64,000 nucleotides of DNA from an uncultured Gammaproteobacteria bacterium (GTDB taxonomy: Bacteria; Patescibacteriota; Patescibacteriia; UBA9934): positions 386,897 to 450,896 of the forward strand of contig CAYVLY010000001.1 of NCBI GenBank assembly GCA_964452565.1, read 5' to 3'. The position numbers and the translations under genes were made by a program. Below are positions 3,781 through 49,823 of the stretch, in pieces. The notes beneath the pieces are model-generated. The model searched no databases, had not been told where the DNA came from, and saw nothing but the letters and a program-made list of their open reading frames with translations. Position 1 is the first letter of the stretch. The number at the start of each line of letters is the position of its first letter.

Positions 3781-3924
3781 AGCTGAACAATTATTGTGTT
3801 ATAGCTGCCTCCTTGATGAACACTTATTGTATTCAATTAAGCTAATCTTAAATACTTTTTGTATTCACAAATTACCATACCAAAGGGTGTGCATAAAGCC
3901 TTGGGTGTGGATAAAAGCAGAATC

Positions 3925-3994
3925 CAGAACCCAGAAAAAAACAAAAGAATCGACTTTCGCCGACCCTCATCTGGCTTCTTCTTTCTGGGTTCTG
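3925..3994 (-). promoter_or_regulatory. long hairpin immediately downstream of ftsA stop (13-bp perfect stem CAGAACCCAGAAA/TTTCTGGGTTCTG, ~44-nt loop) followed by TTCTGCTTTT; candidate partial terminator or processing site between ftsA and ftsZ
   Basis: Inverted repeat seen in the sequence; located in the 216-nt ftsA-ftsZ spacer. Confidence 0.45.
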
Positions 3995-5685: not shown

Positions 5686-6093
5686 CTATAAAATTTGTTC
5701 AACAATCTTATCTTGCAATGAAAACATTTCTTTATCCTCTCCTGGTCGCTCATGATCGTGCCCTAGGACATGTAGAACTCCGTGGACTATTAGATCGATA
5801 ACCTCATGTTCGATACTACCATGTGCTTGCCGACCTGCTTGATCATATGAGATCGCAACATCCCCGAGTTGATTGCCTCCTTCCGAATAGCCAAACGATA
5901 GCACATCTGTGACCTCATCTTTCTCGCGATACATCCTATTTAACTTCTGGATTTCTCGATCTGTCACAAAACGAACATTGATCACACCATCGTTTGATAC
6001 GCTTGAGTTGATTACATCCTGTATCTTTTGACAGATAGAATCTGATAGTTTATCAGACTCTATTAGAGATTGTTCAAAATCTAGACTTATCAT
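5686..6093 (-). CDS. ybeY: rRNA maturation endoribonuclease YbeY
   Basis: HGVLHVLGHDHE zinc-binding motif (H-x-x-x-H-x-x-G-x-D-H). Confidence 0.9.
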   Translation of the reverse strand: MISLDFEQSLIESDKLSDSICQKIQDVINSSVSNDGVINVRFVTDREIQKLNRMYREKDEVTDVLSFGYSEGGNQLGDVAISYDQAGRQAHGSIEHEVIDLIVHGVLHVLGHDHERPGEDKEMFSLQDKIVEQIL

Positions 6094-7049
6094 TGAGCAA
6101 GAAAGCTATTGATCATCATCTGGAAGGTTTGCAAATACACAATCTCTATTTCGTCAGAGAGATCATATTGGAATACATACACCCTACCTTCAGCTTCAAC
6201 ATATGCTAGAAGTTCATCTGGGCTCATATAAGCTACGTAACCCTCTTTTGTGAGTGTTGTATCAAGGTCGTCATATTCCCCTTCTCCAAACGAATTTTCT
6301 GCATACCAATCCTCAAACACCAAATCTTCTAGACTAGATGCAGTAAGCCGTATAGTCGCTGTTGAATTTGTACGGAAGATTACCTCTTCAGTTTCCTGGA
6401 ACTCTGAGTCAACCTCAGCAGCTACTGTCCATTGAGTTGGATAAGTTAATGTGAATCCGAGATCCTCGCTCTCATACTCCTCTACAGATCCAGTATCTAA
6501 CAATGTTTGCGGAGCCTCGCCAAGTGGACTATAACGATGGAACACCTCATTTCCATCTAAGAACGTATCACCATCTGAATCTGGGTCTCGCGCATCAGTT
6601 CCATACATCACCTCTTCGATGTCTGACAAACCGTCACTGTCCAAATCTGATCCTGGACGAATCTCTTCCTCTTCTACAATTACCTCCTCCTCAATTATCT
6701 CACCCTCGACTACTTCCTCTTCTTCAATACCCTGAAGCGCAACCCAGCCAAGAACAGCTATAGCTATAACAAACAATATTCCAGCAATCGCCAAGATCCA
6801 AGGAAGCTTGCTCTTCTTTTTCACTGGAGTGACCGGCTTTTTCACAGGCTGTTTTGGAGGTACTGGCTTTGGAGTTGGTTTTGGTACTGGCTTTGGTGCA
6901 GCCTTAACAACTGGCCTCTTCTCTTCCTTTACAACAGTCTTTTTCTGCTTGAATGCCTCGGGCATTACATGAATCACAAAATCACTTAACTCGCCTTTCT
7001 TTTGTTTCTTTGCACCTTTTGGCGCTTGCTTTTGTGATTCGTCGAACAT
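6090..7049 (-). CDS. single-pass membrane protein: K/P-rich cytoplasmic N-terminus, TM, poly-Glu spacer, two bacterial TSP3-like EF-hand Ca-binding repeats, C-terminal domain
   Basis: TM segment LPWILAIAGILFVIAIAVLGWVAL; repeats DSDGDGLSDIEEV and DSDGDTFLDGNEV (D1,D3,D5,D9,E12 EF-loop spacing). Paralogous to 7155..7841, 7939..8850 and 35229..35909. Confidence 0.6.
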   Translation of the reverse strand: MFDESQKQAPKGAKKQKKGELSDFVIHVMPEAFKQKKTVVKEEKRPVVKAAPKPVPKPTPKPVPPKQPVKKPVTPVKKKSKLPWILAIAGILFVIAIAVLGWVALQGIEEEEVVEGEIIEEEVIVEEEEIRPGSDLDSDGLSDIEEVMYGTDARDPDSDGDTFLDGNEVFHRYSPLGEAPQTLLDTGSVEEYESEDLGFTLTYPTQWTVAAEVDSEFQETEEVIFRTNSTATIRLTASSLEDLVFEDWYAENSFGEGEYDDLDTTLTKEGYVAYMSPDELLAYVEAEGRVYVFQYDLSDEIEIVYLQTFQMMINSFLAQ

Positions 7050-7154
7050 AGTCTACAAAGGTTATAAAGGTGATTAGAGGTTATAAAGGTGATTAAATGG
7101 CATCTCTACAGCCTTTAATCACTTTTTATTACCTTTGCCACCTTTTATCACTTT
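7050..7154 (-). promoter_or_regulatory. GTGAT/ATCAC repeat module (R1) upstream of the TSP3-family gene 6090..7049
   Basis: Read on the coding strand: 3x AAAGTGAT, then 2x TAATCACCTTTATAACC (17-nt direct repeat), then ATG. TATAAC -10-like box about 20 nt before the start. Can fold as GTGATTAAAGGC/GCC(A)TTTAATCAC. Confidence 0.5.
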
Positions 7155-7841
7155 TTACTTCGGTATCTCAAACAACTGACCCTCGCCATTTGGGTTATAA
7201 CCAGCAGCAACCTCTTGGCCATCTAGGAATCCGTCATCATCCGTATCTGCATCGAATGGATCTGTGTCATAAACCTGAACTTCCTCACGATCACCCAAAC
7301 CATCTTTATCTGTATCTACACTTTCAGGATCGGTCCCAGCTTCAATCTCCTCTGCGTCAGTTAATCCGTCGCCATCAGTATCCTGCTCTTCAAGCTCCTC
7401 ATCAACAACCTCCTCTTCATCGACATCCTCTTCTTCCTCTTCAATGTCTTCTACGATCTCTTCTGTTGTATCATCTACAACTTCGTCGGTTGCTACATCC
7501 TGAGTCATCAACCGATAAGCCAAGTAACCTGCTGCTGCAATAATTACAACTGCAACAACAACAATGACACCAACTTTAAAGACATTGGATATATCTGACT
7601 TTGGCGGTGCTGGTGGAACTGTTCCTGCACTTGGTGCCGCCTGTTGCGTTGGCGCAGTTGGCGTTGGTGAAGCTGCTGGAGTCGGTTCAGCCGCCTTAGG
7701 AGCCGCTGCTGGAGCAGTTGGTGCTACAGGAAGGTTCGTGGGCACACTAGGTGCATCTGCCTGAGCATCTGTAGGTCCATCAGTTTTAGCAAACATGTCC
7801 TCAACTTGAGGATCGTCTTTTTTCACTTGATCATCAAACAT
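7155..7841 (-). CDS. single-pass membrane protein with Pro/Ala-rich N-terminus, TM, acidic spacer and bacterial TSP3-like Ca-binding repeats
   Basis: DTDGDGLTDAEEIEAGTDPESVDTDKDGLGDREEV...DTDDDGFLDGQEV; the same MFD-start, TM and acidic-run architecture as 6090..7049. Confidence 0.6.
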   Translation of the reverse strand: MFDDQVKKDDPQVEDMFAKTDGPTDAQADAPSVPTNLPVAPTAPAAAPKAAEPTPAASPTPTAPTQQAAPSAGTVPPAPPKSDISNVFKVGVIVVVAVVIIAAAGYLAYRLMTQDVATDEVVDDTTEEIVEDIEEEEEDVDEEEVVDEELEEQDTDGDGLTDAEEIEAGTDPESVDTDKDGLGDREEVQVYDTDPFDADTDDDGFLDGQEVAAGYNPNGEGQLFEIPK

Positions 7842-7938
7842 AATTTATAAAGGTTATAAAGGTGATCAGAGGTGATAAAAGGTATTAAACCTTTCATCAC
7901 TTTTTATTCCTCTATCACTTTTAATCACTTTTGTTATT
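7842..7938 (-). promoter_or_regulatory. GTGAT/ATCAC repeat module (R2) upstream of the TSP3-family gene 7155..7841
   Basis: Coding strand: AAAAGTGATTAAAAGTGATAGAGGAATAAAAAGTGATGAAAGGT-TTAAT-ACCTTTTATCACCTCTGATCACCTTTATAACCTTTATAAATT-ATG. Contains a 12-bp hairpin with one G.U pair and shares the ATCACCTTTATAACCTTT block with R1. Confidence 0.5.
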
Positions 7939-8850
7939 TTACCTCAGTGGATCATATCCTCCAATCACCTCTGTGCCATCCTGGTATCCATCATTATCTG
8001 TATCTGAATCTGCTGGATCTGTTCCATGCTCAAATACCTCATCATAATCTAGTAATCCATCATCATCTGAATCTGTATCTCGATCGCTAGTTCCATAATA
8101 ATCCTCTTCATCACCGTCTAATTCATCAAAATCCCTGTCTCCTGGCCCAACCATCTCTAAACAAGCATATTTGTAATCTCGGATTCCAACTAAATAACAT
8201 GGGGCCGGATCACGTGTTTCAATTGCTTCTGCGATTCTCGCCCCGTATTCACATTGCGCATCAGATATAATTTCATTGTCGCAATTACCTTCGATAATTG
8301 CATTCAAAGCCCATAACGCACGACAATTATCTACTTTTTCTGAATCTGAATAATCCTCGCAGTCCTCATAGCCGTGATCTTCACCAAGTGTCTGGGTCAC
8401 AATAGCATCATTACAACTATTCTTTTTATCTTGATCTGCGATACCTTTGCAGTCATTGATATCTAAAGATGTAAGGGCAGATAATGTTGCGCAAGAATCA
8501 TAGTCCTCCCCCTCAAGCTCATCACAATAACTAATGTCTCCGGTTTGCTGAGCAAGCCTAGGAGCAGCGCTTGCAATACATTTATCTACATCATCCTCGC
8601 TTTGACAAGATTCTATATATAGCCTTGTATTGTTTTCAACGGTCTTATCTCCACCATTAAAGAATAGGCCAATGACAAATACTAGAAACCAAATTGCCAA
8701 TACAACCGCCACAATGGCTACGACAATCTTAATCACAAGCCCAGACTTCGCGCGTATCTTATCTTTCAAGCTTACAACCTTTGTACCCTCTTCATCCAAC
8801 TCGTACCAATCAACCTTACTTTCATCAAATTGTTTTTGTTTGTCTTGCAT
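7939..8850 (-). CDS. single-pass membrane protein with Cys-rich ectodomain and C-terminal bacterial TSP3-like Ca-binding repeats
   Basis: TM segment LVIKIVVAIVAVVLAIWFLVFVIGLFF; C-terminus DRDTDSDDDGLLDYDEVFEHGTDPADSDTDNDGYQDGTEVIGGYDPLR. Confidence 0.6.
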   Translation of the reverse strand: MQDKQKQFDESKVDWYELDEEGTKVVSLKDKIRAKSGLVIKIVVAIVAVVLAIWFLVFVIGLFFNGGDKTVENNTRLYIESCQSEDDVDKCIASAAPRLAQQTGDISYCDELEGEDYDSCATLSALTSLDINDCKGIADQDKKNSCNDAIVTQTLGEDHGYEDCEDYSDSEKVDNCRALWALNAIIEGNCDNEIISDAQCEYGARIAEAIETRDPAPCYLVGIRDYKYACLEMVGPGDRDFDELDGDEEDYYGTSDRDTDSDDDGLLDYDEVFEHGTDPADSDTDNDGYQDGTEVIGGYDPLR

Positions 8851-8862
8851 ATGATTGAAAGG

Positions 8863-11800: not shown

Positions 11801-14800
11801 GATGCTCCCCAGATTGTTGATCCATCACAGAATGCCGGTCCATTTTGGAACCCATCACCTGTTCCGTATCCTCCAATAATTATTTGCTCATCGTCAGTTG
11901 TGTCACTGTCAATATCTGAGAACCAAGAACCAGTTTTAAATTCAAGTTCTGCACCAATAACATACCCAGAATCTCCATATGCACGATAATGATAGGTTCT
12001 TGAACCTCGCGGACAAAGATATTCACCAGCAACCTCATCCACACATGTTGTCTCATCATAATCTCTATATCTTCCGGAGCCACATCCTTGATAAGAATCT
12101 AAAGGATCTGAGTCAACGCTTACACCAAGATCTGTTGCTAGAACATCATCCCAGGATCCCCAAACACTTGATGTTAATGATCGAACAAAACTTCCTGATT
12201 CGATCTGTGGGGTTGAACTACTCATATACTCTGCAAGATCTGTAACATCTCCTAGACGATCCATATCGCGCATGAGCTTTGATTTTATGTCAGCACAATC
12301 GTATCCAGTTGCAGTACAGTCTAAGTCTGATTCGCAACTCGTTGTATAGTTTCCAGCTGTTGAGCTATAGCAAAGTGCCATGTCATCTACATTTGTAACA
12401 AGAGACAAGTTCTCAAGCATCATGTCAAAAATATCAACAGCTGTACTGCTTGCACCGTAGTTATAAGAGATGATTGCTATGTTCGGATATAACGATCCAG
12501 TGACATAGTTTGGAACAGCCACATAGGTTGAGCGGCCATCTACCACTGCCTGGAATCCATCAATCGTTGTTTGTGTTGGATTACCTGAGAATCCGTTTGC
12601 GTAATACCATGCCATTGGACTTAGGTACGAGCTATTCATCACAAAACGAACACCAATGGCATCACCTGTTGGGCCATTATCATTAACTACATTAAAGAAA
12701 TATTCTTTCAAAACTTCAGTACTTCCACGCTCTTGAGCCATCACAACGCGCAACTCTGGATAATCATCATCAGTGTCGCCATCTTCACCAGCATCTCGAC
12801 AATAGTATGTTGAGAAATTCATCCATCCACGTCCGACACCAGCAGACACACCTGAGCCTGCATGTAATCCGTCAGCATTATCTTCAAATGGGAAGTAATC
12901 AAGAGCTGGCCATGGATTATCACAAACAACTATCGTAATGTCTTCGGTTCCACTAACTACAGTTGATTCACATGTAGCAGATACATACTCGCAATCAGTA
13001 TCAAGGTCGCAACTCTCACCACTAATCGAACACACTCCTGAAGAACATGTCTCCTGACACTCAGAGTCAGTTGTACAACCGGTTATTGATGCATCAGAGC
13101 TACAGTAGAAAGACTCGCCAGATGTATCTTCTGTAACAATTGCTTTTGTTGCAATGTTTGCTTCACCACTTGATCCTGTGGATGTGTAATCAGCAGTGGC
13201 GGCGCTAACAGAGCCAACAGACTCACTGCTTCTTGTTAGGAATGAACCAATGCCATCGTCATCATCGTCGTCGTCCGAACTCCAGCTTGTCCATTCCCAT
13301 GTATATCCTGAAATTGGCTCAATCGCCTGTGCTGAGCCTGTGTCGTATGAATAAGCTGTTGCAGTAAATGTGTGCTCCTCATCAACCTCGGTGAATGCAT
13401 TCGGGCTATCTTCGTCTCCATCAATGATGTCCACTTCATCAAGTCCGCAAATGCTCTGATATGTCTCAAAGCTTTGTGAAGCATCTCCATCCATTGCAAC
13501 TCCATAACTTGTCAGAACTCCATCCCGATCATCATCACCCAGAGTATCTCCAGTAACATAGATTGTATAACTTGCTTCTGCAGCAAGTGCCTGATCGTGA
13601 TTGAACACCACTTTATAAACGCCATCACCAACTGCACTTTGCGTGTATCCAGTGATTGGCAATATACAGTCTCCACTTGTTTGTGCATGTACGATTGGCG
13701 CAAAGATCATTGTAAATACATTTAATGCTCGCTGCCACCAAGAATCTGACGATCCGCCCAAGGCAATAGTTGAATGAGTACTTGGGCAAGTTCCGTCATC
13801 AGTAGTTGTAATGTCTAATACTATAAATACATTGCCTTCAAAGGTTGATGTTTCCATCTTCATATTGAACAGCCCATAAATCTCAGCATTCAAACATGCG
13901 TTAGAGCCATTCGGGAACAATTCCGGATCAGGTCGCTCCATGCAACACAGTGTAGTTGCAGGACCATAGCCATCATCGCAATCATCATCATCTTCAGCAA
14001 CACATGAAAGATATAGCGAGGTATATGCCGTTAGATCGTCATAGGTAACCTGAACAGTTGCTGTTGCAAGGTTTGTACTCATATCTACCTGCTGTCCAGC
14101 GTCAGTACTGATCAAGGCCAACTGAACAGGATCTGTATATCCATCAGGTCCTGCGCCGTATGAGCTACCTTCGCAAGCGTCCAGCTCCCCATAGCCAGCA
14201 ATTCCATCTCCACAAACTGAGGCTTCAGTGTAATAAATCGATGAGCCTGAAAGCAGACAGTCATCAGAACACCACTCTTCCCCATCACAATCCTCACCGG
14301 CACTTGTACTTGAATGTTGATCTAATATTTCATCGCCACACTCGCCAGAACTTCCAAAGCTTGCGTAATCAGCATCAGCACCTTCACGAATACAGCTTGA
14401 TGAGCACCCGTCACCGTCGGTTGTATTTGAATCATCACAAGTCTCATATGGTTCATCGATTGTTCCATCACCACATTCTGCAGCAACTTGTGTAATCGCT
14501 GTTGTTCCTTCATTAAGACAGATTGAGGAGCATCCATCGCCAGATGAAGCATTTCCATCATCACAGTCCTCTCCTCCTTGATCATCTTCATGTGCGATAT
14601 CGCTATTTCCACATGTTGCTCCAGCTGCCTGAGACCCCTCGTTTAAACATGAAGAAGAACATCCATCACCGTTAGTTGAGTTGTTATCATCGCATTCTTC
14701 CCCGGTATCAAGGTCCCCATCACCACAACAGGAAGAACTATCTGCATCGCAAGTGCTTGCAGCATATGTACAATCCGTATCTAGAGAACACTCAGTTTCA

Positions 14801-17800
14801 GAGATAGAACATGTTCCAATTAACGCCTCTGTATCAGTTATTTCACATACTTCCTGGCAGTCTGTGTCAGCACTACAAGACTCGCCAGTTGATGAGCATG
14901 TGTATACACATGCGTCGGTTCCTTCATATTGGCAAGATGAAGAACATCCATCGCCATCAACTGTATTCCAGTCGTCACAGTCCTCACCCGTCTCAGTGGA
15001 GCCATTTCCGCAGATTCCATAATAAGTCTCTGATCCGCTTGCAGTACAAGCTGATGTACATCCGTCTGGGATATTTGTTTGACCTACATCAAACAAACTA
15101 CTTGCAACTGTAACCCATTCCGCTACATCCTCATCACTAACAATAGGGTCAGTCCATGACCAGTCATAGCCATAACCACTCAATTCCTGACCTGCAACAG
15201 AGCAGCTATCTGGATCTCCATATGCAGTGACCTCGTAATGCTGTGTATCGCCTATTGCCTCAAGTGTCTGATTTTCAGGGGCAAGTGCGATGCTGCTTAC
15301 CAAACAAAGTGCATCATCGTCCTTTGATCCAAAAGTCCAAGAGAAATCATCTCCATAGTTTGTTCTAGTAAGTGCTACGCCACTATTTGATATAGCAGAT
15401 CCTGACACTACAACTCTGTAGAACTCAGATTCCTTCAAGCTCGTACCGTAATCGCTGTCCGCAATAGTCAATGTCACCTCTGAACAACCAACTGATTCCA
15501 CGCTGCTGCAACTAGCTGTAGTTGTTATTTCTGAAACCACCGCACATAGCTCATTTGAGCAGGAATACAATGTTATATAATCAGTTATTGAATCATCCAT
15601 CACCACATTAAATGTAGCGCTAATTGCGCCATTCACGCATGCAGATGAACAATCTGGCTGATAGTCGCTAACATACGGATCTTCAAAATTAACAGTAACT
15701 TCTGCATCACCAGTGGTTCCGCTATCTGATTCTTCTGCTGTCAAAATAGTAATTCCTTCTGCAACACCAACTGCAGATATGCAATAATCTTCTGTCATTT
15801 CCTCACAATCTGTAAGGCCAATATATGAATATGTGTCTACATCCCAATCCCAACCATAACTTGCAGGATTCAAGACCTGACATTCTTGCAATGGCAATGC
15901 ATTGAACTCAGAATCTTCACCCTGCTCTTCAATCGTGGACGAGGTTGGGCTGACCATCACCTCTTCAATCTCACAATCTGCTTCACTTGGACCTGTAGTA
16001 AATGTCCAAGTCACATCCTCCTCAAGAGTTTGGCCAACGCCTGTATCTGAGTACGATGTAAGATCGTCCGTCACCCAAACAAGATATGAGGTGCTGGTTT
16101 TAAACTTCCCATCGTTATAAGAAGAATCTAAAGTCCATGTAAACGATGTTCGCTCAGTACTCGATGAGGCATATACCGACCCGCTTACATCATCGTCATC
16201 AAAATCAACATTGCACCTGCTATCAGAGCACTCAAAAATCTTAATGTTGTCGGTCGAAATAGTATCTTCATCCATGACAGTACTAAAAGACGCTCTAATC
16301 ACTGTATTGGTGCACGACTCTGTTGTATAAATTAGGTTTGGAACTGCACTAACCAAATCGTCAGAACACTCAACAAGTAAAGTTGGTACATCTGGAATGT
16401 CGCCTGTTGAGAAATACCAAGCATAACCTCCAGAAACATCAGCCGCGACCTCCTCTTCAACAGTTCCAACTTCAAAATTCAATTCATTACTTTCTTCTAG
16501 TGCCGACGAAGTAACAGATACTGGCCCAGTCTGGGTACCAGAAGGAACGGTCACCGTTACACTATCATCATCCCAATCCTCTACCGTGCCAAAAACTGAA
16601 CTATAAAATTCTACTGATCCTGCTGTTGACCCCAGCCTTTGACCATAGATAATAATAGTATCGTCAACCTCTGCGATATCTGGATCAATCGCACAAATTC
16701 CAGGAGTGGGTTCATCGTCAGTAACTGTAAAGTCAATATCATCTGAATCAACTCCAGCTTGTGTTGTTATATAAAGGTCGTAATCCCCTGCTTCAACATC
16801 GCTTTCATTAGTAAACTCTTCTGGAACTATGATTGTAATCTCATCATCACTCCAGTAATCATCCTCACAAGCATCTGGGAAATCAACACTACCCTGCGCG
16901 ACATATCCGCTAGTTTGATCTTCAAACCAAACACTTCCAATGGCAGCACCAAAGTTTGTACCTGAAATAGTGACATACTGACCCACGCCACCCTCTTCAG
17001 GATCTATAGAATAAATTGTTGGTATTTCCTCATCGCTATACTCAACTCCAAAGCTTATTTCGTTCGAAGTTACTCCATCAACTGTTACAGACACGTCAAC
17101 AAATTCTCCTGCCGTTAACGACGGCACGGTCACGACCGCAGACGCATCTGACCATGTTGAATAGCTACTTGCTTCAGTTGTATCAAAATAAATTGATGAA
17201 TCGCCCACTGAATCACCGAAGCCGAGCCCTGATAGCGTAACCGCGTCTCCTACCTCAGCTTCATCAGGAGCTATGTTACAAAGATTTGGACGCTCAGTTT
17301 CATTAACATCAAAATCATCAATCAACGTTCCTTCATCATTGTCAGTTGAGTCAGTATATCCAGATGGCGAAACTTCAACAGTAATAGGCCCATCATCAGC
17401 TCCTTCTGGTACTTCTGCAATGATCTGATCAGACCACCACCCCTCACCACAGGTTGGAATGTCAGCCTCTACCGTGCCGCCAGCGCCATCAGAAAAATAG
17501 ACCGAGCCTCTTGTTCCAAACCCAGAACCAGAAATAGTTACATAAGTGCCAACTGCTCCGTTTGAAGGTGAAATGCTCTCGATCTCAGGATATGAAACAC
17601 ATGTGCCATCTTCGCATGTCCCACTTGCACAATCATCGTCCTCCTCACATGAATCGCCATCACATGAGCCACAACTACCACCACAGTCAGTTCCCTCTTC
17701 ATCTTCGTCCTGCGTTCCATTGAAACAATGCGCTGGCAAAATCTTAATTCGAACTGAATCTGTGTCTTCGTTTCCTGCAATATCTGTCACAGTAACCTCA

Positions 17801-21647: not shown

Positions 21648-24600
21648 TCATGACAGTGCGATATCTTCTCCTGGATTCAGACCTTCTGAACAGGTTCCTG
21701 TTGATGTAGAGGAAGATGAGATTGAGTCTGCACCACCTTCAAGAGAGCCAATCTCGGGAGAAGATGAGGTTGTTGGAGTACTTCCTGAACTTGCTGTTGT
21801 AAAACTTATGTCGTCTAGTGTTGTTTCATTACCAAAGTCATCTATGGCCCAAATCTTTGTGTAATATGTGGTTTGCTTGCTAAGGCCTGTGATGGTTGTG
21901 GTTGCGGTTCCTACGGTTGTTAGATCTGTGTCATCTGAATCATCCCATTCAGTAGCACTTGTTCTACCTTGAACATCTGACTGGCTAGTATCAATCCAGA
22001 TTTCATAATGATTAAAGTTTGAGTCTGTGGCTGCAGTCCAGGTAAACGTTGCGGTTGTGGTAGTCGCACTAGAACGTGCGAATGAAGCTAAAGACGCTGG
22101 ATCTACATTGTCTACAGTTATACTTGTTTTAGATGCAGTAGATCCGGCTGCAGTTCCATCATATGGAGTTATTCTAACCTGGGCAGTAGAAAGATCGGCT
22201 GCTGCCTCATCTGTAGCAGATTCCCATACAACAGAGACTGTATTAGCTCCAGATGAACTTGTTATATATCCACTGGCATTACCTACTTGGTAAGTATCAT
22301 CGTTTTCTACTGCAGGATCTCCATAAGTAGCAGATGCCTCTGCTCCTGTCTCAGATACTGTAGCTTTAGTCCATCCTCCGCCAATGTCGTATTCAACAAG
22401 GGCCTCTAGAGTATCGTCATCATCTGCATCATCCATGATGAATGTAATAGTCACATCTCCTGTTCCGTCTGTACCTTGAGTTGCTGTAACTGTTGAGACT
22501 GTTGGGGCAACATTGAAACCCCAGTTGGTATTATTCCCTCCATTTGTTGAACGTGACGGGCTTACAGCATGTGTAATTGTATTACCACCACTCGCATCTG
22601 AATCTGTGACATTAACATAATCTACAGAACTTGTACCTGAAACATTTAAAAGCCAGGTTGTAGCAGGACTAGAACTAGTAATTGTAATCAGGGCTGCATC
22701 ACCACCTGTTAATGTTAGGGTCCCAGATACTGTTGTTGTGGTGCTTGCTGTAAATACAATTGCCTTACTTGCTGTTGTAGAGGTTAAATTATTGAAAGAT
22801 GTAGTTCCAGAAATCGTTGTTGTCTTTGACACGTCGTCCAATGTCACGGTTCCTGATCTGGGCGTAAATGTCCCGGAGTTAGCCCAATCACCTCCCACTG
22901 TAATTGCATAGTTATCACCATCTGAAGTGTCTAGCGTTCCAGCCGTAATTGTGAGTGTATTATTTACATCTATAGCCTCATCTAGTGTATAAGTGCTACC
23001 AGATGAGTTAATTGTTAAATTATTGTATGGAGATAATGCTGAAAGTAATGATGTAGACTCTGTGGTTGCTGCATTATATGTAATTGTTCCACCTGAGTTA
23101 GTCCATGTGTTTGCAGTTTTAACAATATCAGAAGTCGTATCATTAGATTCAATCTGAAGTTCACCACTTGAAATTGTTACAGTATCTCCTCCTGCATCTC
23201 CAAAGGTATTTATATTTGTTCCCGTCTTCATCGTTCCACCACTAATAACTGTATTACCTGCAATGGTCATAGTGTAGTCATTAACATCAAAGGTTCCTGC
23301 AGATACTGTTAGATTTCCCACTATTGATTCATTTGCACCCAACTGAGCTATTGCACCTCCAGTTGTTGCAATTTCCAGGCTTTGATATGCCCAGTCCTGC
23401 ATAGCAACCGTTCCTGTTGATGAAACATATTTTACTGTAGAGCCTGAGTTCAAAGTTGGAACAGTATCATCTAAAGTCAAGGTTTCTGTTCCTCTCCATG
23501 CAAATGTTCCGCCATCTTCAACTACAAAATCACCAGACCAACCACTAACTGTCAAATCATAACCATTTATATTTAATTCCCCTTCTACAACAGTGAGGTC
23601 TTGCTCACTGTCATTCACAGTTAAATCAGATGCTAAATTAACAGTCGGTGTTGAAGTGGTGGTTCCTATTTTTATATGTCCGTCATATAAAGCTTCTGCT
23701 CCAGTTAAATCAAAAGTTTGAGCACTAGAGCCAGCAAGAGTCAATACAGAGTCATTCTTATCATAACTGTACCAATTTGATTCTATTGTTACATCTCCTT
23801 GAGCTTCAATTGTGCCCAATATCGTCCTTCCATCACTCATTAATAAATCACCTTCAACATACAGGGTATCCCCAGAGCCTAAATAAACATAATTAGAACC
23901 TCCACCACATACAACGCCCGTACCACTACAATCAAAGGTAACATCATTGAAAACACCAGAAGTAGCAATTGACGCCTTATCAAAATTCCAAGTGTCAGAA
24001 CCATTACCATCCCACATGAAAGTACCACTGTTATGATTAGAAACACCTCCAGCAGTATGGGTCCAACTGCCTGCAATAAATGTTGTACCAGTTGTTGCAT
24101 TAAAAGTTCCATCTGTAATAATCACATCATTTACATCTAATGTTCCTGTATTTCCATTTAATGTACCTCCAGATATATTTAAATCATCTGCCACCTCCAA
24201 TTCATATGCGCCAACATTCAAACTTCCATCAGTGAGTGTCAAATCTTGTCCTGAACTATTCATTATCAAGTCAGATGCTAAATTAACAGTTGGTGCTGCG
24301 GAACCAGTCCCTATTGTTACATGTGCGTTAAATAAAGCTTCCCCTCCAGTTAAATCAAAAATTTGTGTACCAGAGCTAGAAAAAACTAAAGGAGTGTCAC
24401 TGGTATTATTGCTATACCAATTTGACTCTATTGTTACATTTCCCTGGGCCTCAATTGTACCTGTTATTACTCTTCCATCACTCATTAATAAATCACCTTC
24501 AACATACAGGGTATCCCCAGAGCCTAAATAAACATAATTAGAACCTCCACCACATACAACGCCCGTACCACTACAATCAAAGGTAACATCATTGAAAACA

Positions 24601-25793
24601 CCAGAAGTAGCAATTGACGCCTTATCAAAATTCCAAGTGTCAGAACCATTACCATCCCACATGAAAGTACCACTGTTATGATTAGAAACACCTCCAGCAG
24701 TATGGGTCCAACTGCCTGCAATAAATGTTGTACCAGTTGTTGCATTAAAAGTTCCATCTGTAATAATCACATCATTTACATCTAATGTTCCTGTATTTCC
24801 ATTTAATGTACCTCCAGATATATTTAAATCATCTGCCACCTCCAATTCATATGCGCCAACATTCAAACTTCCATTAGTAATAGTTAAATCTAGCCCACCA
24901 TAATTCAAAATACAATCCGAAACTAAATTAACAGTTGGTGCATTAGTTACAGTTCCAATAGTTGTATGTGAATCCCATTCATCTGTATATCCTGTTAAAT
25001 CAAAAGTTTGTGTCCCTGTTCCAGTAAATGTCAGAGCGGCATCAGTAAGATTAAAGGCATCCCAAGGTCCTACAGTGACATTACCCTGCACCTCTATACC
25101 ACCACCGTTAAACCACCTTCCATCATAAAAAGTCGCATTACCGTTTATATATAGGGTGTCTCCTGAAAGATTAACATAGGAGCCGGAGTCACTGGTGCTA
25201 TCATAAGTAAAATTATTAAACACTCCAGAGGTAGGAATCCCGGCTTTATCAAAATTAAAGGTTTGTCTATAACCAGTATGTTTGACTGTTCCTGAACCTG
25301 CATTCCACACTCCTCCAGCTGTATGTGTCCAGTTTCCAGTAAAAGTGAGCGTCCCTGACGTACCATTAAATGTACCACCTGAAATTGTAACACCTCCGCT
25401 TATTGTAATATCTTGACTTGCTCCAGTGAATGTCCCATCTGCTTGATCATAATGTGATGAACCAATTGTTAAACTTCTAGCCTGTGTAATGGTCCCATCA
25501 TAACCACTATTTATATCAATTCCAGCAACAGACCCTGCAAATGAAGCGTCAATTGTTGAATCATTGTCAGAAGTATTATCAAAAGTAGCAACATCACTTG
25601 CTCCTGGTGGTGAATCGGTAGACCAGTTCAAGCCAGTTGACCAGTTTGTATCAACTCCTCCGCCACCATCCCAAGTGACTACTGCTGCATGAGCTTGATT
25701 GGCACTCCAAAAGGCTGCAAGTAGCACAAATAATGCAATAATAGAAATATTGCAAATCAGCAAGCCAAGCGATCTTGTCTTAATATATTTCAT
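21648..25793 (-). CDS. large secreted/anchored protein with parallel beta-helix-like ~215-aa tandem repeats and C-terminal FN3-like domains
   Basis: Likely start MKYIKTRSLGLLICNISIIALFVLLAAF (signal/anchor) at 25793; the ORF-track start at 25856 lies inside the terminator repeat. Repeats NISGGTLNGNTGTLDVNDVIITDGTFNATTGTTF occur; two copies are nucleotide-identical over ~400 nt. FN3-like TTATFTWTAATDSNFNHYEIWI. Stop TGA at 21648..21650. Confidence 0.8.
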   Translation of the reverse strand: MKYIKTRSLGLLICNISIIALFVLLAAFWSANQAHAAVVTWDGGGGVDTNWSTGLNWSTDSPPGASDVATFDNTSDNDSTIDASFAGSVAGIDINSGYDGTITQARSLTIGSSHYDQADGTFTGASQDITISGGVTISGGTFNGTSGTLTFTGNWTHTAGGVWNAGSGTVKHTGYRQTFNFDKAGIPTSGVFNNFTYDSTSDSGSYVNLSGDTLYINGNATFYDGRWFNGGGIEVQGNVTVGPWDAFNLTDAALTFTGTGTQTFDLTGYTDEWDSHTTIGTVTNAPTVNLVSDCILNYGGLDLTITNGSLNVGAYELEVADDLNISGGTLNGNTGTLDVNDVIITDGTFNATTGTTFIAGSWTHTAGGVSNHNSGTFMWDGNGSDTWNFDKASIATSGVFNDVTFDCSGTGVVCGGGSNYVYLGSGDTLYVEGDLLMSDGRVITGTIEAQGNVTIESNWYSNNTSDTPLVFSSSGTQIFDLTGGEALFNAHVTIGTGSAAPTVNLASDLIMNSSGQDLTLTDGSLNVGAYELEVADDLNISGGTLNGNTGTLDVNDVIITDGTFNATTGTTFIAGSWTHTAGGVSNHNSGTFMWDGNGSDTWNFDKASIATSGVFNDVTFDCSGTGVVCGGGSNYVYLGSGDTLYVEGDLLMSDGRTILGTIEAQGDVTIESNWYSYDKNDSVLTLAGSSAQTFDLTGAEALYDGHIKIGTTTSTPTVNLASDLTVNDSEQDLTVVEGELNINGYDLTVSGWSGDFVVEDGGTFAWRGTETLTLDDTVPTLNSGSTVKYVSSTGTVAMQDWAYQSLEIATTGGAIAQLGANESIVGNLTVSAGTFDVNDYTMTIAGNTVISGGTMKTGTNINTFGDAGGDTVTISSGELQIESNDTTSDIVKTANTWTNSGGTITYNAATTESTSLLSALSPYNNLTINSSGSTYTLDEAIDVNNTLTITAGTLDTSDGDNYAITVGGDWANSGTFTPRSGTVTLDDVSKTTTISGTTSFNNLTSTTASKAIVFTASTTTTVSGTLTLTGGDAALITITSSSPATTWLLNVSGTSSVDYVNVTDSDASGGNTITHAVSPSRSTNGGNNTNWGFNVAPTVSTVTATQGTDGTGDVTITFIMDDADDDDTLEALVEYDIGGGWTKATVSETGAEASATYGDPAVENDDTYQVGNASGYITSSSGANTVSVVWESATDEAAADLSTAQVRITPYDGTAAGSTASKTSITVDNVDPASLASFARSSATTTTATFTWTAATDSNFNHYEIWIDTSQSDVQGRTSATEWDDSDDTDLTTVGTATTTITGLSKQTTYYTKIWAIDDFGNETTLDDISFTTASSGSTPTTSSSPEIGSLEGGADSISSSSTSTGTCSEGLNPGEDIALS
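23836..24876 (-). repeat. near-perfect intragenic tandem duplication (period 645 nt; about 396 nt identical: 23836..24231 = 24481..24876)
   Basis: The identical 77-aa reverse-frame ORFs 23879..24112 and 24524..24757 in the ORF track show the duplication. The identical nucleotide strings were read directly. Confidence 0.85.
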
Positions 25794-25843
25794 GATCTTA
25801 TTGTTTCTATATTGTATCAAGCTACTATTTATAAAAGAAACAT

Positions 25844-25883
25844 ATTGTGGACACAAAAAGCCCCCGATTTCTTAGGGGCTTTT
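25844..25883 (-). terminator. 40-nt repeated double-hairpin terminator module (copy 2), downstream of yqeY
   Basis: Identical to 20803..20842. Confidence 0.6.
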
Positions 25884-31596: not shown

Positions 31597-33084
31597 ATGA
31601 GCGACGAGCATAGCGTTGATTTTCTCAAAAAGAAGTACCAGATGGTCCCAACTCAAAAGAGCACAAAGCGAAAGCGCAAGGCTCTCAAAGTGTTTGGGGC
31701 GCTTTTTGTTGTTACAGCTATCTGCGGCGTTCTTTTTTCTTACAATCTTTCCCGCGAGTATGACGACGAGGCTGTTGAGTATGAGAGCTTCTCACTCTTC
31801 TCTTCTTTACGTAATCTTGTTAGTTCAGGAGATAAGGAGTTGACCGGTGAAGATGATGACCGCATAAACTTTTTACTTCTTGGAGTTGGAGGATACGGAC
31901 ATGCCGGGCCTGAGCTTTCTGACACCATAATGTTTGCAAGTTACAAACCTTCAACAAGTGATATTGGTTTGCTCTCGATTCCTAGAGACCTAGCCGTGCC
32001 TATTCCTGGATATGGCTACCAAAAGATCAACAGTATAAATGCGTATGGTGAGATGGAAGATCCTGGATCTGGTCCTGAGTGGTCATCTGAGGTAATTGGC
32101 GATCTTCTTGATCAGCAGATTCACTACTACGTGAAGGTTGACTTCAATGGATTTGTAGAAATGATTGATGCAATTGGCGGAATCGATGTGTATGTTGATA
32201 GGTCATTTACAGACTACAGCTACCCCACTGACGACGATCTTATTCAAACAGTTTCGTTTGATGCTGGATGGACACACATGGACGGTGAAACCGCCTTGCA
32301 GTTTGCCCGCTCAAGACACGGAGATAATGGCGAAGGGTCTGACTTTGCTCGCGCTGAGCGCCAACAAAAAATCTTGCTTGCTGTAAAAGATGAACTTCTC
32401 TCAGCATCAACCTTTCTGAACCCGTCAAAGCTGAGCAACCTAGTTGAGACTTTCCAGGACAATGTTGAAACAAACATGTCATTCTGGGAGTTGATGAAAA
32501 TGACACGCTACATTCCAGATATCGACACTGAGAATATCTACACAACAGTTCTTGAAACTGGATATGACAGTCCTCTGTATTCTACGATGATTAATGGAGC
32601 GTATGTTCTTCTACCAAAGAAAGATGACTGGACACCAATTCAGGAGATGGCGCAAAACATTTTTGATGAATCTGGTTCTGCAAGTTATGCAACTGACAGT
32701 GTAGATAGCGATTCTGACACAAGTGCGGAGATCTCATCAACGATCCTGGAGATACAAAACGGAACAAGCGTTGTAGGCCTTGCCTTTCAAACCTCGCAGA
32801 TGCTCTCTGGAACAAACTTTTCTGTAGAAAACATCGGAAACGCAGACTCTCAAGATTATGAAACAACTATAATCTACGACCTTACCGGCGGAGAAAAACC
32901 AGACGAACTGGAAGTATTAACAAACTTTTTAGAAGCCGATGTTGCAATGACAACATCGGGTTGGATCTTTTCTGAAACAGTCACTCCTCGTGAGCTAACA
33001 ATTGATACTCCAGAGGATACTGATGAAAACATTGACTTTTTGATAATTTTGGGGCAAAACGCTACGAGCTTGGTACTGCAATAA
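31597..33084 (+). CDS. LytR-CpsA-Psr (LCP) family cell-envelope protein with C-terminal LytR_C-like domain
   Basis: N-terminal TM; FLLLGVGGYGHAGPELSDTIMFASY LCP core; extended -10 TGCTAGAAT just upstream. Confidence 0.8.
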   Translation: MSDEHSVDFLKKKYQMVPTQKSTKRKRKALKVFGALFVVTAICGVLFSYNLSREYDDEAVEYESFSLFSSLRNLVSSGDKELTGEDDDRINFLLLGVGGYGHAGPELSDTIMFASYKPSTSDIGLLSIPRDLAVPIPGYGYQKINSINAYGEMEDPGSGPEWSSEVIGDLLDQQIHYYVKVDFNGFVEMIDAIGGIDVYVDRSFTDYSYPTDDDLIQTVSFDAGWTHMDGETALQFARSRHGDNGEGSDFARAERQQKILLAVKDELLSASTFLNPSKLSNLVETFQDNVETNMSFWELMKMTRYIPDIDTENIYTTVLETGYDSPLYSTMINGAYVLLPKKDDWTPIQEMAQNIFDESGSASYATDSVDSDSDTSAEISSTILEIQNGTSVVGLAFQTSQMLSGTNFSVENIGNADSQDYETTIIYDLTGGEKPDELEVLTNFLEADVAMTTSGWIFSETVTPRELTIDTPEDTDENIDFLIILGQNATSLVLQ

Positions 33085-33170
33085 AGTGATTAAAGGTTAA
33101 AAAGGTGATCAAAAGTGATTAACAACTTTTCACACCTCTCATCACCTTTCATCACTTCTTAATCACCTCT
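33085..33170 (+). promoter_or_regulatory. GTGAT/ATCAC repeat module (R3) upstream of der
   Basis: AAAGTGATTAAAGGTTAAAAAGGTGATCAAAAGTGATTAACAACTTTTCACACCTCTCATCACCTTTCATCACTTCTTAATCACCTCT-ATG. Same architecture as R1 and R2: 3x GTGAT, then 3x ATCAC. AAAGGTGAT...ATCACCTTT is a perfect 9-bp pairing. Confidence 0.5.
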
Positions 33171-34541
33171 ATGACTTCACACGCCCCCAAGGTCGCGATT
33201 GTTGGCCGAACAAATGTAGGAAAATCAACCCTGTTCAACAAGCTTATTGAAGAACAGAAGTCTTTAGTTTCTGCGACTCCCGGTACAACTCGTGATCGCT
33301 ATGAGGGAGACTGCATCTGGCGCGCCAAGGTTGTGCGGCTGATTGATACAGGTGGGCTTGATCGTGATCAAACTGATGAGATCGATATTGAGATTGGCAA
33401 GCAAGCAAGGGCAGCCATAAAGGAGGCTGATCTTGTTTTATTTATAGTTGATGTTAAGGCCGGTCTTCAAGAAGAAGATCGTTTGTTAGAAAAAGAACTT
33501 CAGAAGCTTAAGAAGCCAATAATTCTCGTTGGAAATAAGGCAGACAATGCAAAGCTTGTTGCATCTGTTCATGATAAGCAATGGCATAAGTGGAGTCTGC
33601 AATCTCCGATGCCAGTTTGTGCCAAACGGGGAAATAGGACCGGTGACTTGCTTGATAGCGTTTACGAAGAACTTGAAGAGCTGGGCAAACCCCCGATTTC
33701 GATTTCCGATGCCACTGCCATGCGTGTTGCAGTTATTGGAAGGCCGAACGTTGGAAAGTCTTCCCTTCTTAATGCCGCACTTGGTGAAACTCGATTTATT
33801 GCATCATCACGTGAACATACGACTCGCGAACCTAATGACACACAAGTTACTATAGACGGACGTGATTATATTCTTATCGACACTGCGGGTCTTCGAAAAA
33901 TGGCACGTGTTCACAGTGGTAAGTCAAAACTTGAAAAAGAAGGTGTTGAAAGAACCATTAAAGCCATAAAGAAATCTGACGTTTGTCTTCTGGTGCTCGA
34001 TATTTCTAAAAATATCCAAGCGCAAGATAAGCATCTAGCTGGTGAACTTGAAAAATCTGGAGCAAGCGTGGTTATCATTGCAAACAAGTGGGATCTGATT
34101 CCTGATAAAGACCCTGTCACGATCGACAAATACGAACACTACATCCGCGCTAACTTGCCATCTCTTGATTGGGCGCCGATCTTGTTTACAACTGCTACAA
34201 CTGGAAAGCGTGTTCAAAACATGTTCGATATTATTGATCAAGTTTTTGAAAATAGATTCACACAGCTTGATGATCAAGAAACACACGAGTTTATCAGCCG
34301 AGCCATTGTGAAGCACAAACCAAGTCGTGGAAAAGGAATCGCGCATCCAAAAATCTTTAAGTTTAGGCAAACTGGAGTTAACCCTCCAACATTCCTTTTG
34401 TTCATCAAGCAGATGCGTACTGACTCTCTGAATAAATCATATTTGCGGTTCTTAGAGAACTTATTGCGACGATTTTATTCATTTGGTGGAACTCCGATTG
34501 TGATCAAAGTGCGCGGACGTAAGAAATCACATACGACTTAA
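33171..34541 (+). CDS. der: ribosome-biogenesis GTPase Der (EngA), tandem GTPase domains + KH-like domain
   Basis: Two P-loops GRTNVGKSTLFN and GRPNVGKSSLLN; 456 aa. Confidence 0.9.
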   Translation: MTSHAPKVAIVGRTNVGKSTLFNKLIEEQKSLVSATPGTTRDRYEGDCIWRAKVVRLIDTGGLDRDQTDEIDIEIGKQARAAIKEADLVLFIVDVKAGLQEEDRLLEKELQKLKKPIILVGNKADNAKLVASVHDKQWHKWSLQSPMPVCAKRGNRTGDLLDSVYEELEELGKPPISISDATAMRVAVIGRPNVGKSSLLNAALGETRFIASSREHTTREPNDTQVTIDGRDYILIDTAGLRKMARVHSGKSKLEKEGVERTIKAIKKSDVCLLVLDISKNIQAQDKHLAGELEKSGASVVIIANKWDLIPDKDPVTIDKYEHYIRANLPSLDWAPILFTTATTGKRVQNMFDIIDQVFENRFTQLDDQETHEFISRAIVKHKPSRGKGIAHPKIFKFRQTGVNPPTFLLFIKQMRTDSLNKSYLRFLENLLRRFYSFGGTPIVIKVRGRKKSHTT

Positions 34542-46528: not shown

Positions 46529-47416
46529 CTACTCCACAATCCTCTTAATAAAATCCTTTAGCTCCTCTCGCGAGTAAAAGTGAATTGTTAGTTTGCTTGC
46601 CGGTCCCTTCACTTGAAGTCCGACCTTAGTACCTAGTGCTTCGCGAAGTTCTGATTCGATCGCCGCAATGTTTGGATCTTTGTCCGCCTTTTTGCGCGGT
46701 GTGGCAGCTCGTGCCTCTGCCTCACGCACACTCATCTTTCCTCCAAGCATTTGTTTAAACAATTCGTTTCGACGCTTTGGATCAGATTCTGACAAAAGAG
46801 TTCGAGCATGAGACCTGGTAATCTTCTTTTCCATAAGTGCCTGCTGAATCTCATGATCGAGATCCATTAGACGCATTGTATTTGCAACATATGACCGACT
46901 CTTACCAACACGCTTTCCAATCTCATCCTGAGTGAGTCCAAACAATTCGACAAACGAATTAAATGCTCGCGCCTCTTCAATGGCATTCAAGTTTGACCGT
47001 TGAATGTTTTCGATAAGTGCTAGCTCAAGCTTTTGCTGTTCTGTTGCAGTTCGCACAACTGCTGGAACGCTTTTCATGCCAAGCATCTTTGCACATCTAA
47101 AGCGTCGCTCACCTGCAATGAGCTCATAAGATCCATCATCCTTCCGGGTTACAAGTAAGGGCTGTAATATTCCATGCTCTTTTATGGACTGCAAAAGATC
47201 CTCCAAGTCTGATGGAGAAAAGTGAACACGCGGCTGATGCGGATTTTCAGCGATTTGATCGACCGGAATCTCAGACTCAACTGTGTGCTTAATAACTTCT
47301 GCAGCCTCAGTTCCTGGTTCAGGTGCTATCTTGGGTGGAATCAATGAACTAAGTCCACGACCTAATCCTCCCTTAGGTGTTACCATACAATGCTTCTTTA
47401 GTTGCGTTTTCTTCAC
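46529..47416 (-). CDS. parB: chromosome partitioning protein ParB
   Basis: GERRFRCAKMLGMKSVPAVV ParB box. The track ORF overlaps parA; the internal start MVTPKGGLGRGLSS at 47386 is likelier. Confidence 0.85.
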   Translation of the reverse strand: MKKTQLKKHCMVTPKGGLGRGLSSLIPPKIAPEPGTEAAEVIKHTVESEIPVDQIAENPHQPRVHFSPSDLEDLLQSIKEHGILQPLLVTRKDDGSYELIAGERRFRCAKMLGMKSVPAVVRTATEQQKLELALIENIQRSNLNAIEEARAFNSFVELFGLTQDEIGKRVGKSRSYVANTMRLMDLDHEIQQALMEKKITRSHARTLLSESDPKRRNELFKQMLGGKMSVREAEARAATPRKKADKDPNIAAIESELREALGTKVGLQVKGPASKLTIHFYSREELKDFIKRIVE

Positions 47417-48271: not shown

Positions 48272-48348
<77 letters not shown>

Positions 48349-48471
48349 GGCCGTCGAACGGCCTAAATCCGTTCAGGCAACCACAAAAACCCATCGACAC
48401 CACGTCGGTGGATTTTTGTACAACAAGGCCTGTGGCCCGTCTAACGGGCCCAAAATGCTAAAATAGACCAT

Positions 48472-48741
48472 ATGCATTTTGTTTATGTTCTGTTCTGTAA
48501 AGATCGGAGATTATATATCGGCTACACAAAAAACTTGCAGGAACGCTTTACCGCGCATCAAGGTGGTAAAGTACGATCAACGCGCCACCGACTACCTATT
48601 AAGCTCATCTATTATGAGCATTATTGCAATAGCAAGGATGCTAGAGCTCGAGAAATATACCTCAAGAGTGGTGGAGGCCACCATCACTTTAAAAGACAGC
48701 ACAAGAACCAACTTATAAGACTGGGTTATAAGCATCTCTAA
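48472..48741 (+). CDS. GIY-YIG nuclease domain protein (small standalone)
   Basis: MHFVYVLFCKDRRLYIGYTKNLQERFTAHQ matches the GIY-YIG core (Y-V-Y..G.T..L..R...H). Confidence 0.7.
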   Translation: MHFVYVLFCKDRRLYIGYTKNLQERFTAHQGGKVRSTRHRLPIKLIYYEHYCNSKDARAREIYLKSGGGHHHFKRQHKNQLIRLGYKHL

Positions 48742-48772
48742 ATAACAAAAACCGGTCGTTAGACCGATTTTT

Positions 48773-49774: not shown

Positions 49775-49823
49775 ATGATTTTGACGAGATCAAAAAAGAC
49801 CGTCTTTTTATGACAGTCTTTTT

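Follow-up and report, generated by a model that had tools for sequence, protein, structure and literature searches.

Patescibacteria genomes are tiny and contain little noncoding DNA, so a 100-bp insert set exactly between translationally coupled genes is unlikely to be cost-free. What, then, are the three spacers of 86 to 105 nt, each built of short repeats and their reverse complements, that separate co-directional genes in a 64-kb stretch of contig CAYVLY010000001.1? We refer to this whole stretch of DNA as the window and to the three spacers as R1 (positions 7050 to 7154), R2 (7842 to 7938), and R3 (33085 to 33170); their repeats are boxes of the form AAAG(G)TGAT/ATCAC(C)TTT. An earlier annotation of the window, here called the original prediction, had drawn attention to them. 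The answer that we tentatively prefer, with a probability of about 0.35, is that these modules are lineage-specific intercistronic quasi-palindromes with an RNA-level role in processing or stability.

Box clusters fill three intercistronic spacers

The boxes are concentrated in the three spacers. Seven of the eight matches to AAAGTGAT in the 64 kb and five of the eight matches to AAGGTGAT lie within R1 to R3, and a composite pattern of one forward and two reverse boxes (AAAGTGAT-N10-40-ATCACCTYT-N0-1-ATMAC) matches these three regions alone, with no match in 100 shuffles. When scored with a box weight matrix, R2 (at 7.8 kb) contains 8 boxes per 110 bp, and R3 (33.1 kb) and R1 (7.05 kb) contain 7 each; elsewhere in the window, which has a G+C content of 44%, the density does not exceed 4 per 110 bp, and the maximum in shuffled sequence is 3 to 5. 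Tandem Repeats Finder independently reported arrays with a period of 9 to 10 in each arm of R1 to R3, and self-comparison of the modules gave maxima at offsets of 9 to 10, 19, and 29. Together, the pattern counts, weight matrix, shuffles, and repeat finding indicate that the clustering of GTGAT and ATCAC motifs in three regions, as described in the original prediction, is real. The motif is not simply a ubiquitous component of AT-rich background, since box density outside R1 to R3 is at the level of shuffled sequence. The dispersed copies of the module number three in 64 kb (at 7.0, 7.9, and 33.1 kb), and no new module was found in 4.1 kb of additional sequence from the same strain (Logan contigs that are 100% identical to the window).

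In all three cases, the module is the entire gap between the stop codon of one gene and the ATG of the next co-directional gene. R1 (105 nt, minus strand) extends from the stop of a 228-aa TSP3 gene to the ATG of a 319-aa gene. Its 5' arm (7111 to 7154) comprises five purine-rich units (AAAGTGAT, AAAAGGTGGC, AAAGGTAAT, AAAAAGTGAT, and TAAAGGC), with intervals of 10, 9, 10, and 10 nt between successive GT cores; a center or loop, TGTAGAGAT (7102 to 7110), is followed by a 3' arm (7050 to 7101) of five G-poor inverted units (GCCATTTAATCAC, CTTTATAAC, CTCTAATCAC, CTTTATAAC, and CTTTGTAGACT) that abuts the ATG. R2 (97 nt, minus strand) occupies the whole spacer from the stop of a 303-aa TSP3 gene to the ATG of the 228-aa TSP3 gene, with a 5' arm at 7889 to 7938, a loop at 7884 to 7888, and a 3' arm at 7842 to 7883. 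R3 (86 nt, plus strand), which reaches from the stop of a LytR_cpsA_psr gene to the ATG of der, has a 5' arm at 33085 to 33119, a center at 33120 to 33126, and a 3' arm at 33127 to 33170 that contains no G. Read in the sense direction, the modules consist of a 5' arm of four or five purine-rich units (e.g., AAAGTGAT, AAAGGTGGC, and AAAGGTAAT) with very little C, a center of 5 to 9 nt, and a 3' arm of four or five inverted units (e.g., ATCACCTTT, ATAACCTTT, and ATCACCTCT) with 0 to 3 G residues in 43 to 53 nt.

That the three regions have one shared architecture, as had been proposed, was borne out by colinear alignment (68 to 83% pairwise identity), in which R1 and R2 are 83% identical and R3 is 68 to 73% identical to either of them. 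The modules also match one another in several registers 9 to 10 bp apart, so their similarity indicates arrays of a common unit and does not prove descent of whole copies. A 17-nt direct repeat had been reported as common to R1 and R2; the exact 17-mer, TAATCACCTTTATAACC, occurs twice in R1, in the 3' arm, but the R2 copy has one mismatch, and a copy on the antisense strand of R3 has two. The described orientation of the repeats relative to the ATG is present but largely automatic, because a palindrome made of a sequence and its reverse complement reads GTGAT first and ATCAC second on both strands; in R1 and R2, which are flanked by minus-strand genes, this order has to be read on the minus strand. 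The features that are strand specific are AAAGTGAT in the 5' arm versus AAAGGTGAT in the 3' arm (complemented), and a run of five A residues (A5) that precedes the inner stem in the sense direction and appears as T5 on the antisense strand at 7123 to 7127, 7901 to 7905, and 33099 to 33103.

Joined to the last bases of the preceding giant gene, the 12-nt spacer before the 303-aa TSP3 gene (8851 to 8862) has the sequence ATAACCTTTCAATCAT-ATG, which amounts to one unit similar to those in the 3' arms of R1 and R2. A 148-aa open reading frame (ORF) on the plus strand (7097 to 7543) has its ATG in the R1 loop after a perfect AAAGGTGAT box and is oriented antisense to the TSP3 gene. Small opposite-strand ORFs behind Shine-Dalgarno (SD)-like boxes were considered as an explanation of the modules and rejected: R1 alone has one, this 148-aa frame, which is most likely a shadow ORF antisense to a Pfam-supported TSP3 gene, and R2 and R3 have none.

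Some relatives share the architecture but not the sequence

We compared the three junctions with those in related genomes, the loci of which are designated by L-numbers (L028 to L061). The gene order around R1 and R2 (genes for a giant protein and for proteins of 300, 228, and 320 aa, followed by ybeY-dgkA-ftsA-ftsZ) is kept in Uhrbacteria. At the R2 and R1 junctions, respectively, the spacers measure 15 and 2 nt in L052, 20 and 2 nt in L041, 35 and 5 nt in L053, and 96 and 3 nt in L054; those of L037 (141 and 116 nt) and L036 (at least 129 nt and 55 nt) are unrelated in sequence. The lytR-der spacer is 1 nt in both L061 and L035, 24 nt in L028, 40 nt in L057, 73 nt in L029, where it contains G-poor CCAATCCC-type repeats, and 108 nt in L059, where it has the module architecture of R3 with a different unit. 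The relationship among the window strain, L057/L028, L059, and L061 is star-like, with Der or LytR identities of 82 to 88% between lineages. At the orthologous sites the modules are a matter of presence or absence, with spacers of 1 to 40 nt in L028, L035, L041, L052, L053, L057, and L061. In all, at least 10 relatives have 1- to 40-nt or unrelated spacers at their orthologous junctions, which argues against the proposal that the module is a conserved leader of the TSP3 genes or of der.

Wider searches gave a similar picture. No GTGAT-box cluster was found in ~260 kb of related DNA. A strict module pattern yielded 26 matches in the representative genomes of 185,579 species, approximately the number expected by chance, and the two that were inspected lay in coding sequence; in IMG/VR, the same pattern matched one conserved phage gene. 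The GTGAT module is strain specific and lineage specific, and it is not a conserved regulatory leader.

What recurs is the architecture, a purine-rich array after the stop codon and a complementary G-poor array up to the ATG, and not the GTGAT sequence. In the lytR-der spacer of L059 (4749 to 4856), TAA is followed by four AAAGGGT units with a period of 9 to 10, a center, four ACCCTTT units, and the ATG (minimum free energy [MFE], -40 kcal/mol), and the der-pth spacer of the same locus (6225 to 6312) has GAAT heptads and then ATTC heptads. The ftsZ-nrdR spacer of L037 (15449 to 15569) contains five AAAGTNN units, a GC-rich hairpin, and four NNACTTT units (MFE, -49 kcal/mol), and a 125-nt palindrome follows der in L034 (1600 to 1724). 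A module is present at the lytR-der junction in two of five genus-level lineages. Between species, the arms co-vary as whole arrays, and each genome re-uses its own units at several unlinked junctions.

The same build with other units was also seen in L037 at 13957 to 14076 and in L036 at 1 to 129 and 853 to 907, with the overall set including CGAAT and CAGTAGG/CTACATT heptads. CAGTAGG-type heptads occur again in L059 at ~10.8 to 10.95 kb; L059 and L036 come from the same Joint Genome Institute (JGI) sample.

Predicted folding and a possible RNA-level role

The halves of the modules are able to pair, as had been suggested, with fold z-scores of -4.5 to -6.6. For each module, a hairpin of 23 to 38 base pairs that spans the spacer is predicted, with MFEs of -22 to -36 kcal/mol; none of 200 shuffles folded equally well, and relative to shuffles the z-scores of all three modules were about -4.6 for the sense strand and -4.9 to -6.6 for the antisense strand. 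The start codon and the preceding 0 to 13 nt are unpaired in the predicted folds. With 23 to 38 pairs, the predicted stems would provide the two or more helical turns of imperfect double-stranded RNA between cistrons that are expected of an RNase III processing site. A search of Rfam produced no match at the gathering score, nor any at E values up to 10 beyond generic long-hairpin (miRNA-precursor) matches, and the sub-threshold matches scored 15 to 27 bits against gathering scores of 50 to 211. In a consensus scan, neither a sigma-70-like promoter nor a canonical terminator was found within the modules, which fits read-through transcription.

In the RNA-level reading, the spacer would be transcribed within a polycistronic mRNA, and the transcript would fold into a long, AU-rich, imperfect hairpin of 23 to 38 base pairs, the foot of which would join the stop codon region to a point 0 to 13 nt before the AUG. 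The junctions that carry modules are tightly coupled in most relatives; the hairpin could act there as a double-strand-specific processing site or as a 3'-end stabilizer, uncoupling the cistrons. After processing, the leader remaining on the downstream gene would be short, G-free, and unstructured, a suitable form for an organism that usually begins translation without an SD sequence. ERIC and Correia-type palindromic repeats are co-transcribed and alter mRNA decay (review PMC3184786). We retain intercistronic processing, one of the roles listed in the original prediction, among the viable ones. The arrays may grow, and their arms stay complementary, through replication slippage and template switching between the arms or through the spread of a small repeat; this would explain the turnover of units between species with arms that still match. 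If the modules are indeed processing or stability hairpins, they would give an SD-poor organism that favors leaderless mRNAs a way to uncouple the cistrons of conserved operons, one of which runs into ybeY-ftsA-ftsZ.

Several observations weigh against this reading. Permutation of the units within the arms retained most of the folding energy, with 0.06 to 0.36 of the permutations folding as well as or better than the native sequence, so the hairpin potential is a by-product of complementary arrays and provides no evidence for a selected pairing register. The strand preference of folding is also inconsistent, as better folding is predicted for the antisense strand in R1 to R3 and L059 but for the sense strand in L037 and L034. 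The reading also assumes transcription across the modules. A period of 9 to 10 bp would be required for protein binding along one side of the DNA helix and is not required for an RNA hairpin, and slippage alone fails to explain how one unit can be common to unlinked junctions of one genome. Finally, the 64-kb window contains three copies, of which two are adjacent and 83% identical.

Likeness to the 16S rRNA tail and translation initiation

The motifs had been described as identical to the 3' end of 16S rRNA. This holds for 8 to 9 nt, the overlap of the unit with the universal 16S tail being GATCACCT(C), but not beyond: CCTCC (the CCUCC core) occurs in no unit of the modules, and the 13-mer tail (GATCACCTCCTTT/GAUCACCUCCUUU), with up to 3 mismatches allowed, has one match in the modules, on the antisense strand of R3 (antisense to der). 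No rRNA gene is present in the window or in the fetched related loci. The 16S resemblance of the unit is partial and probably secondary to the main feature, and annotators should treat the module as strain specific, neither a conserved regulatory leader nor a mimic of 16S rRNA.

The organism appears to initiate translation mainly from leaderless or short-leader mRNAs without an SD sequence. An SD core 4-mer is found at positions -20 to -4 in just 6 of the 38 genes examined, and the three genes downstream of R1 to R3 lack an SD sequence, as do 32 of the 38. The fraction of G in the 25 nt before start codons is 0.18, compared to 0.25 in coding sequence. Many genes have TGnTAnAAT boxes 6 to 11 nt before the ATG (e.g., at 37955, 47373 to 48167, 50790, 55912 to 56469, and 31597), which is the layout of leaderless or near-leaderless mRNAs.

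Alternative explanations

The 16S likeness is the basis of a reading as a translational control leader, whose SD-like boxes (AAAGGTGAT) and 16S tail-like boxes (GATCACCTYT) would mask each other by pairing, as in the original prediction, or titrate ribosomes. The universal 16S 3' tail includes GATCACCT and is complementary to AGGTGAT, which is itself an accepted variant of the SD sequence, and the lytR-der module of L059 also combines SD-like (AAAGGGAGG) with anti-SD-like (CCCCCTTT) units. Sequestration would have no target, however, because the downstream genes lack an SD sequence in an organism that seldom uses one; the SD-like boxes lie at least 40 nt upstream of the ATG, in the arm distal to it, and the start codons are free in the predicted folds. 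Considering also that the CCUCC core is missing, that the 13-nt tail is unmatched on the sense strand within 3 mismatches, that the element is absent from relatives, and that the same architecture is built elsewhere from units unrelated to 16S rRNA or SD sequences (GAAT/ATTC and AAAGTAT/ATACTTT), we find this reading very unlikely. The 9- to 10-bp period, conserved GTGAT core, and variable linkers would suit operator arrays, occupied on one helix face by an oligomeric DNA-binding protein (MraZ/AbrB-type or ribbon-helix-helix) and either flanking a weak promoter or serving as a roadblock. R2 contains AAAGTGA-TTA-AAAGTGA, R1 contains AAAGTGA-N3-AAGGTGG, and ftsA and ftsZ lie 2 to 4 kb downstream of R1 and R2 on the same strand. 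Yet most boxes have A, and not G or T, as their fourth base (GTGA in most units and GTGG once), known MraZ operators are 3 or 4 direct boxes upstream of mraZ as opposed to 8 to 10 boxes in two orientations inside an operon, and the modules contain no promoter-like site. The window encodes neither mraZ nor another candidate regulator, and no MraZ domain or mraZ was found in the window ORFs or the related loci (the tblastn part of this search used approximate query sequences). Since relatives build the same architecture from unrelated 7-bp units, one conserved protein cannot explain it, and operator arrays are an unlikely solution. All of the palindromic modules seen are purine-first on both strands. 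This is the polarity of a bidirectional intrinsic terminator, from which they could derive by overgrowth of its A-tract, hairpin, and U-tract; such a derivative would attenuate sense transcription or mainly stop transcription that enters antisense to the operon, and a weak -10-like box (TATAAC/TTAAT) in the 3' arm would restore expression of the downstream gene. A terminator-like GC hairpin is central in the arrays of the ftsA-ftsZ spacer of the window (CAGAANN x4, hairpin and T-run, NNTTCTG x3) and in L037 at 15449 to 15569, R1 to R3 have T5 past the inner stem on the antisense strand, and R1 and R2 have TATAAC at 11 nt before the ATG. In contrast, the consensus scan called neither terminator nor promoter in the modules, the central stems of R1 to R3 have 0 to 3 G-C pairs where the genuine terminators of the genome are GC rich, and TATAAC has neither the conserved T at its end nor the TG extension that the clear promoters in the window show; we consider this origin quite unlikely.

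The modules might also be selfish or neutral repeats without function, either non-autonomous mobile copies resembling repetitive extragenic palindromic (REP) sequences or miniature inverted-repeat transposable elements (MITEs) or by-products of slippage and quasi-palindrome template switching, tolerated only where they fit exactly between stop and start. Consistent with this, the modules occur in the window strain alone and the same junctions are short in relatives, related genomes have different unit families of their own at several junctions, the window contains two more unrelated repeat families (TTCTG heptads and a GC-rich palindrome), and species-specific MITE and REP families are common (PMC3184786). 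However, inspection of the junctions against those of relatives revealed no terminal inverted repeats with defined ends and no target site duplication, the ends differ among R1, R2, and R3, and the modules match one another in several registers, from which common descent of whole copies does not follow. Moreover, the same lytR-der junction is occupied in two of five genus-level lineages, and precise stop-to-ATG filling in three of three cases needs strong selection or a targeting mechanism. We view this explanation as possible, if somewhat doubtful; should the modules be mutational by-products, they would be a record of slippage and template switching at an unusually high level in a lineage whose DNA repair is reduced. 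It is conceivable, though improbable, that Uhrbacteria carry an undescribed class of self-complementary minisatellite spacers, with genome-specific unit dialects common to unlinked junctions: AAAGGTGAT and TTCTG in the window; CAGTAGG, AAAGGGT, and GAAT in the L036/L059 organism; and ACTTTNN in L037. Units that are shared by unlinked junctions and yet turn over from one species to the next would imply a partner that is sequence specific and co-evolves fast, beyond mere slippage. This partner may be a species-specific DNA-binding or DNA uptake system, in bacteria that are competence dependent, or a novel mobile element targeting stop/start junctions. Such genome-specific unit dialects at Uhrbacteria intercistronic junctions are the aspect most deserving of attention.

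Other candidates were considered and rejected. An origin of replication or DnaA-box cluster does not fit, as the unit is TTATCAC and not TTATNCACA, and GC skew follows the gene strand with no minimum at the modules. Integron attC sites were dismissed because the flanks are conserved core genes in conserved synteny, and no GTTRRRY/RYYYAAC cores were seen by eye. The heptads bound by Omega/ribbon-helix-helix proteins (WATCACW) have the core pentamer in common with the boxes but are contiguous 7-bp units, compared with the 9- to 10-bp period here. DNA uptake sequences as such would not be confined to three clusters, as the boxes are, but spread over the 64 kb, and for a CRP/FNR-type site (TGTGA-N6-TCACA) the nearest GTGAT and ATCAC pairs are 19 to 24 nt apart.

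Genomic setting and other repeats in the window

The closest named homologues of the window proteins are from Candidatus Uhrbacteria, and the gene set is typical of Patescibacteria, with a 3324-aa protein containing a type IV secretion system (T4SS)-pilin domain and small membrane-anchored TSP3-repeat proteins; further genes are ybeY, dgkA, ftsA, ftsZ, nrdR, lytR, der, pth, dprA, topA, parAB, and scpAB. On the minus strand, the gene upstream of R2 (7939 to 8850) encodes a 303-aa membrane-anchored protein with TSP3_bac repeats, the gene between R2 and R1 (7155 to 7841) encodes a 228-aa TSP3_bac protein, and the gene downstream of R1 (6090 to 7049) encodes a 319-aa membrane-anchored protein without a Pfam match. 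The last of these overlaps ybeY (5686 to 6093), after which dgkA, ftsA, ftsZ, a NUDIX gene, and nrdR follow on the same strand. On the plus strand, R3 is preceded by the gene for a LytR_cpsA_psr family protein (31597 to 33084) and followed by der (EngA GTPase; 33171 to 34541), pth, and the gene for a 226-aa TSP3 protein.

A second family in the window consists of (G/T)NTTCTG heptads at 3918 to 3936 (minus strand), 3976 to 3994 (plus strand), and 57307 to 57342 (minus strand), for which the chance expectation is 0. In the ftsA-ftsZ spacer, two arrays of these heptads in opposite orientations flank a hairpin and T-run, and before scpA there are 5 or 6 direct copies that adjoin, on its upstream side, a start of the leaderless type (TATAAT-N6-ATG). 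A GC-rich palindromic repeat, CTCCCCCTT..GGGGGAGATAGAGGGGGTTGCC, is intergenic at 54409 to 54430 and 56494 to 56515 (minus strand), with a related copy upstream of the gene at 60615 to 61064; it looks REP-type, and similar GC-rich palindrome-like elements are present in distant relatives, including L033 and L059. Other repeats lie within ORFs. A 613-aa ORF without a Pfam match (42795 to 44636) contains perfect in-frame tandem repeats at 44180 to 44251 (21 bp, 3.4 copies) and 44276 to 44348 (18 bp, 4.1 copies), and a 1402-aa ORF (21648 to 25856) has an internal repeat of ~645 bp (23847 to 24834) with a 21-mer pair at 24129 and 24774 and AAGGTGAT at 23847 and 24492. The region from 48272 to 50090 carries two tRNA-Met genes on opposite strands, a tRNA-Leu gene, a GIY-YIG endonuclease ORF (48472 to 48741), and an unannotated 333-aa ORF; L059 likewise has a GIY-YIG gene flanked by repeats of its own.

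Comparison with known systems

The hmw genes of H. influenzae are preceded by 7-bp simple-sequence contingency repeats. The modules are likewise short tandem units before the start codons of surface-protein genes, fast evolving and strain specific, but they are few, imperfect, and paired with an inverted array, and one precedes the housekeeping gene der; no variation in module length was detected between two samples of the strain. The MraZ operator of the dcw cluster has A-rich GTG boxes with a 10-bp period (AAAGTGT-N3 x4 in M. genitalium; PMC12957436). Repeated A-rich GTG boxes with a period of ~10 bp and the presence of ftsA and ftsZ downstream on the same strand make the modules similar to this operator, from which they differ in that the boxes are mostly GTGA, number 8 to 10, occur in two orientations, and lie within an operon, between TSP3 genes and before der. 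Bidirectional intrinsic terminators similarly have a purine-rich 5' side and a pyrimidine-rich 3' side on both strands, and some of the related spacers have a GC-rich central hairpin; R1 to R3, in contrast, have neither a GC-rich stem nor a sense-strand U-run and were not called by the terminator scan.

In the early mRNA of phage T7, RNase III reportedly cuts hairpins between cistrons (Dunn and Studier), so that the upstream mRNA keeps a 3' hairpin and the downstream mRNA has a short leader. Long irregular hairpins placed exactly between cistrons are also what is predicted for the modules, although the two have no sequence similarity and RNase III is not encoded in the window. Among bacterial MITEs (ERIC, Correia [NEMIS], and RUP) and REP/BIME sequences, imperfect palindromes of ~100 bp likewise occur in several copies per genome, are species specific, and lie in transcribed intergenic regions of operons (PMC3184786). 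ERIC, Correia, and REP elements also differ in presence or absence between relatives, as the modules do, and their RNA hairpins can change mRNA decay (PMC3184786). In contrast to these elements, the modules, of which three copies were seen, have no defined terminal inverted repeats, no TA target duplication, and no parent transposase that was found, and their body is an array of 9- to 10-bp subrepeats, matching in several registers, rather than unique sequence. The modules are best filed with the dispersed intergenic palindromic repeats, among which their internal tandem arrays and exact stop-to-start placement make them unusual.

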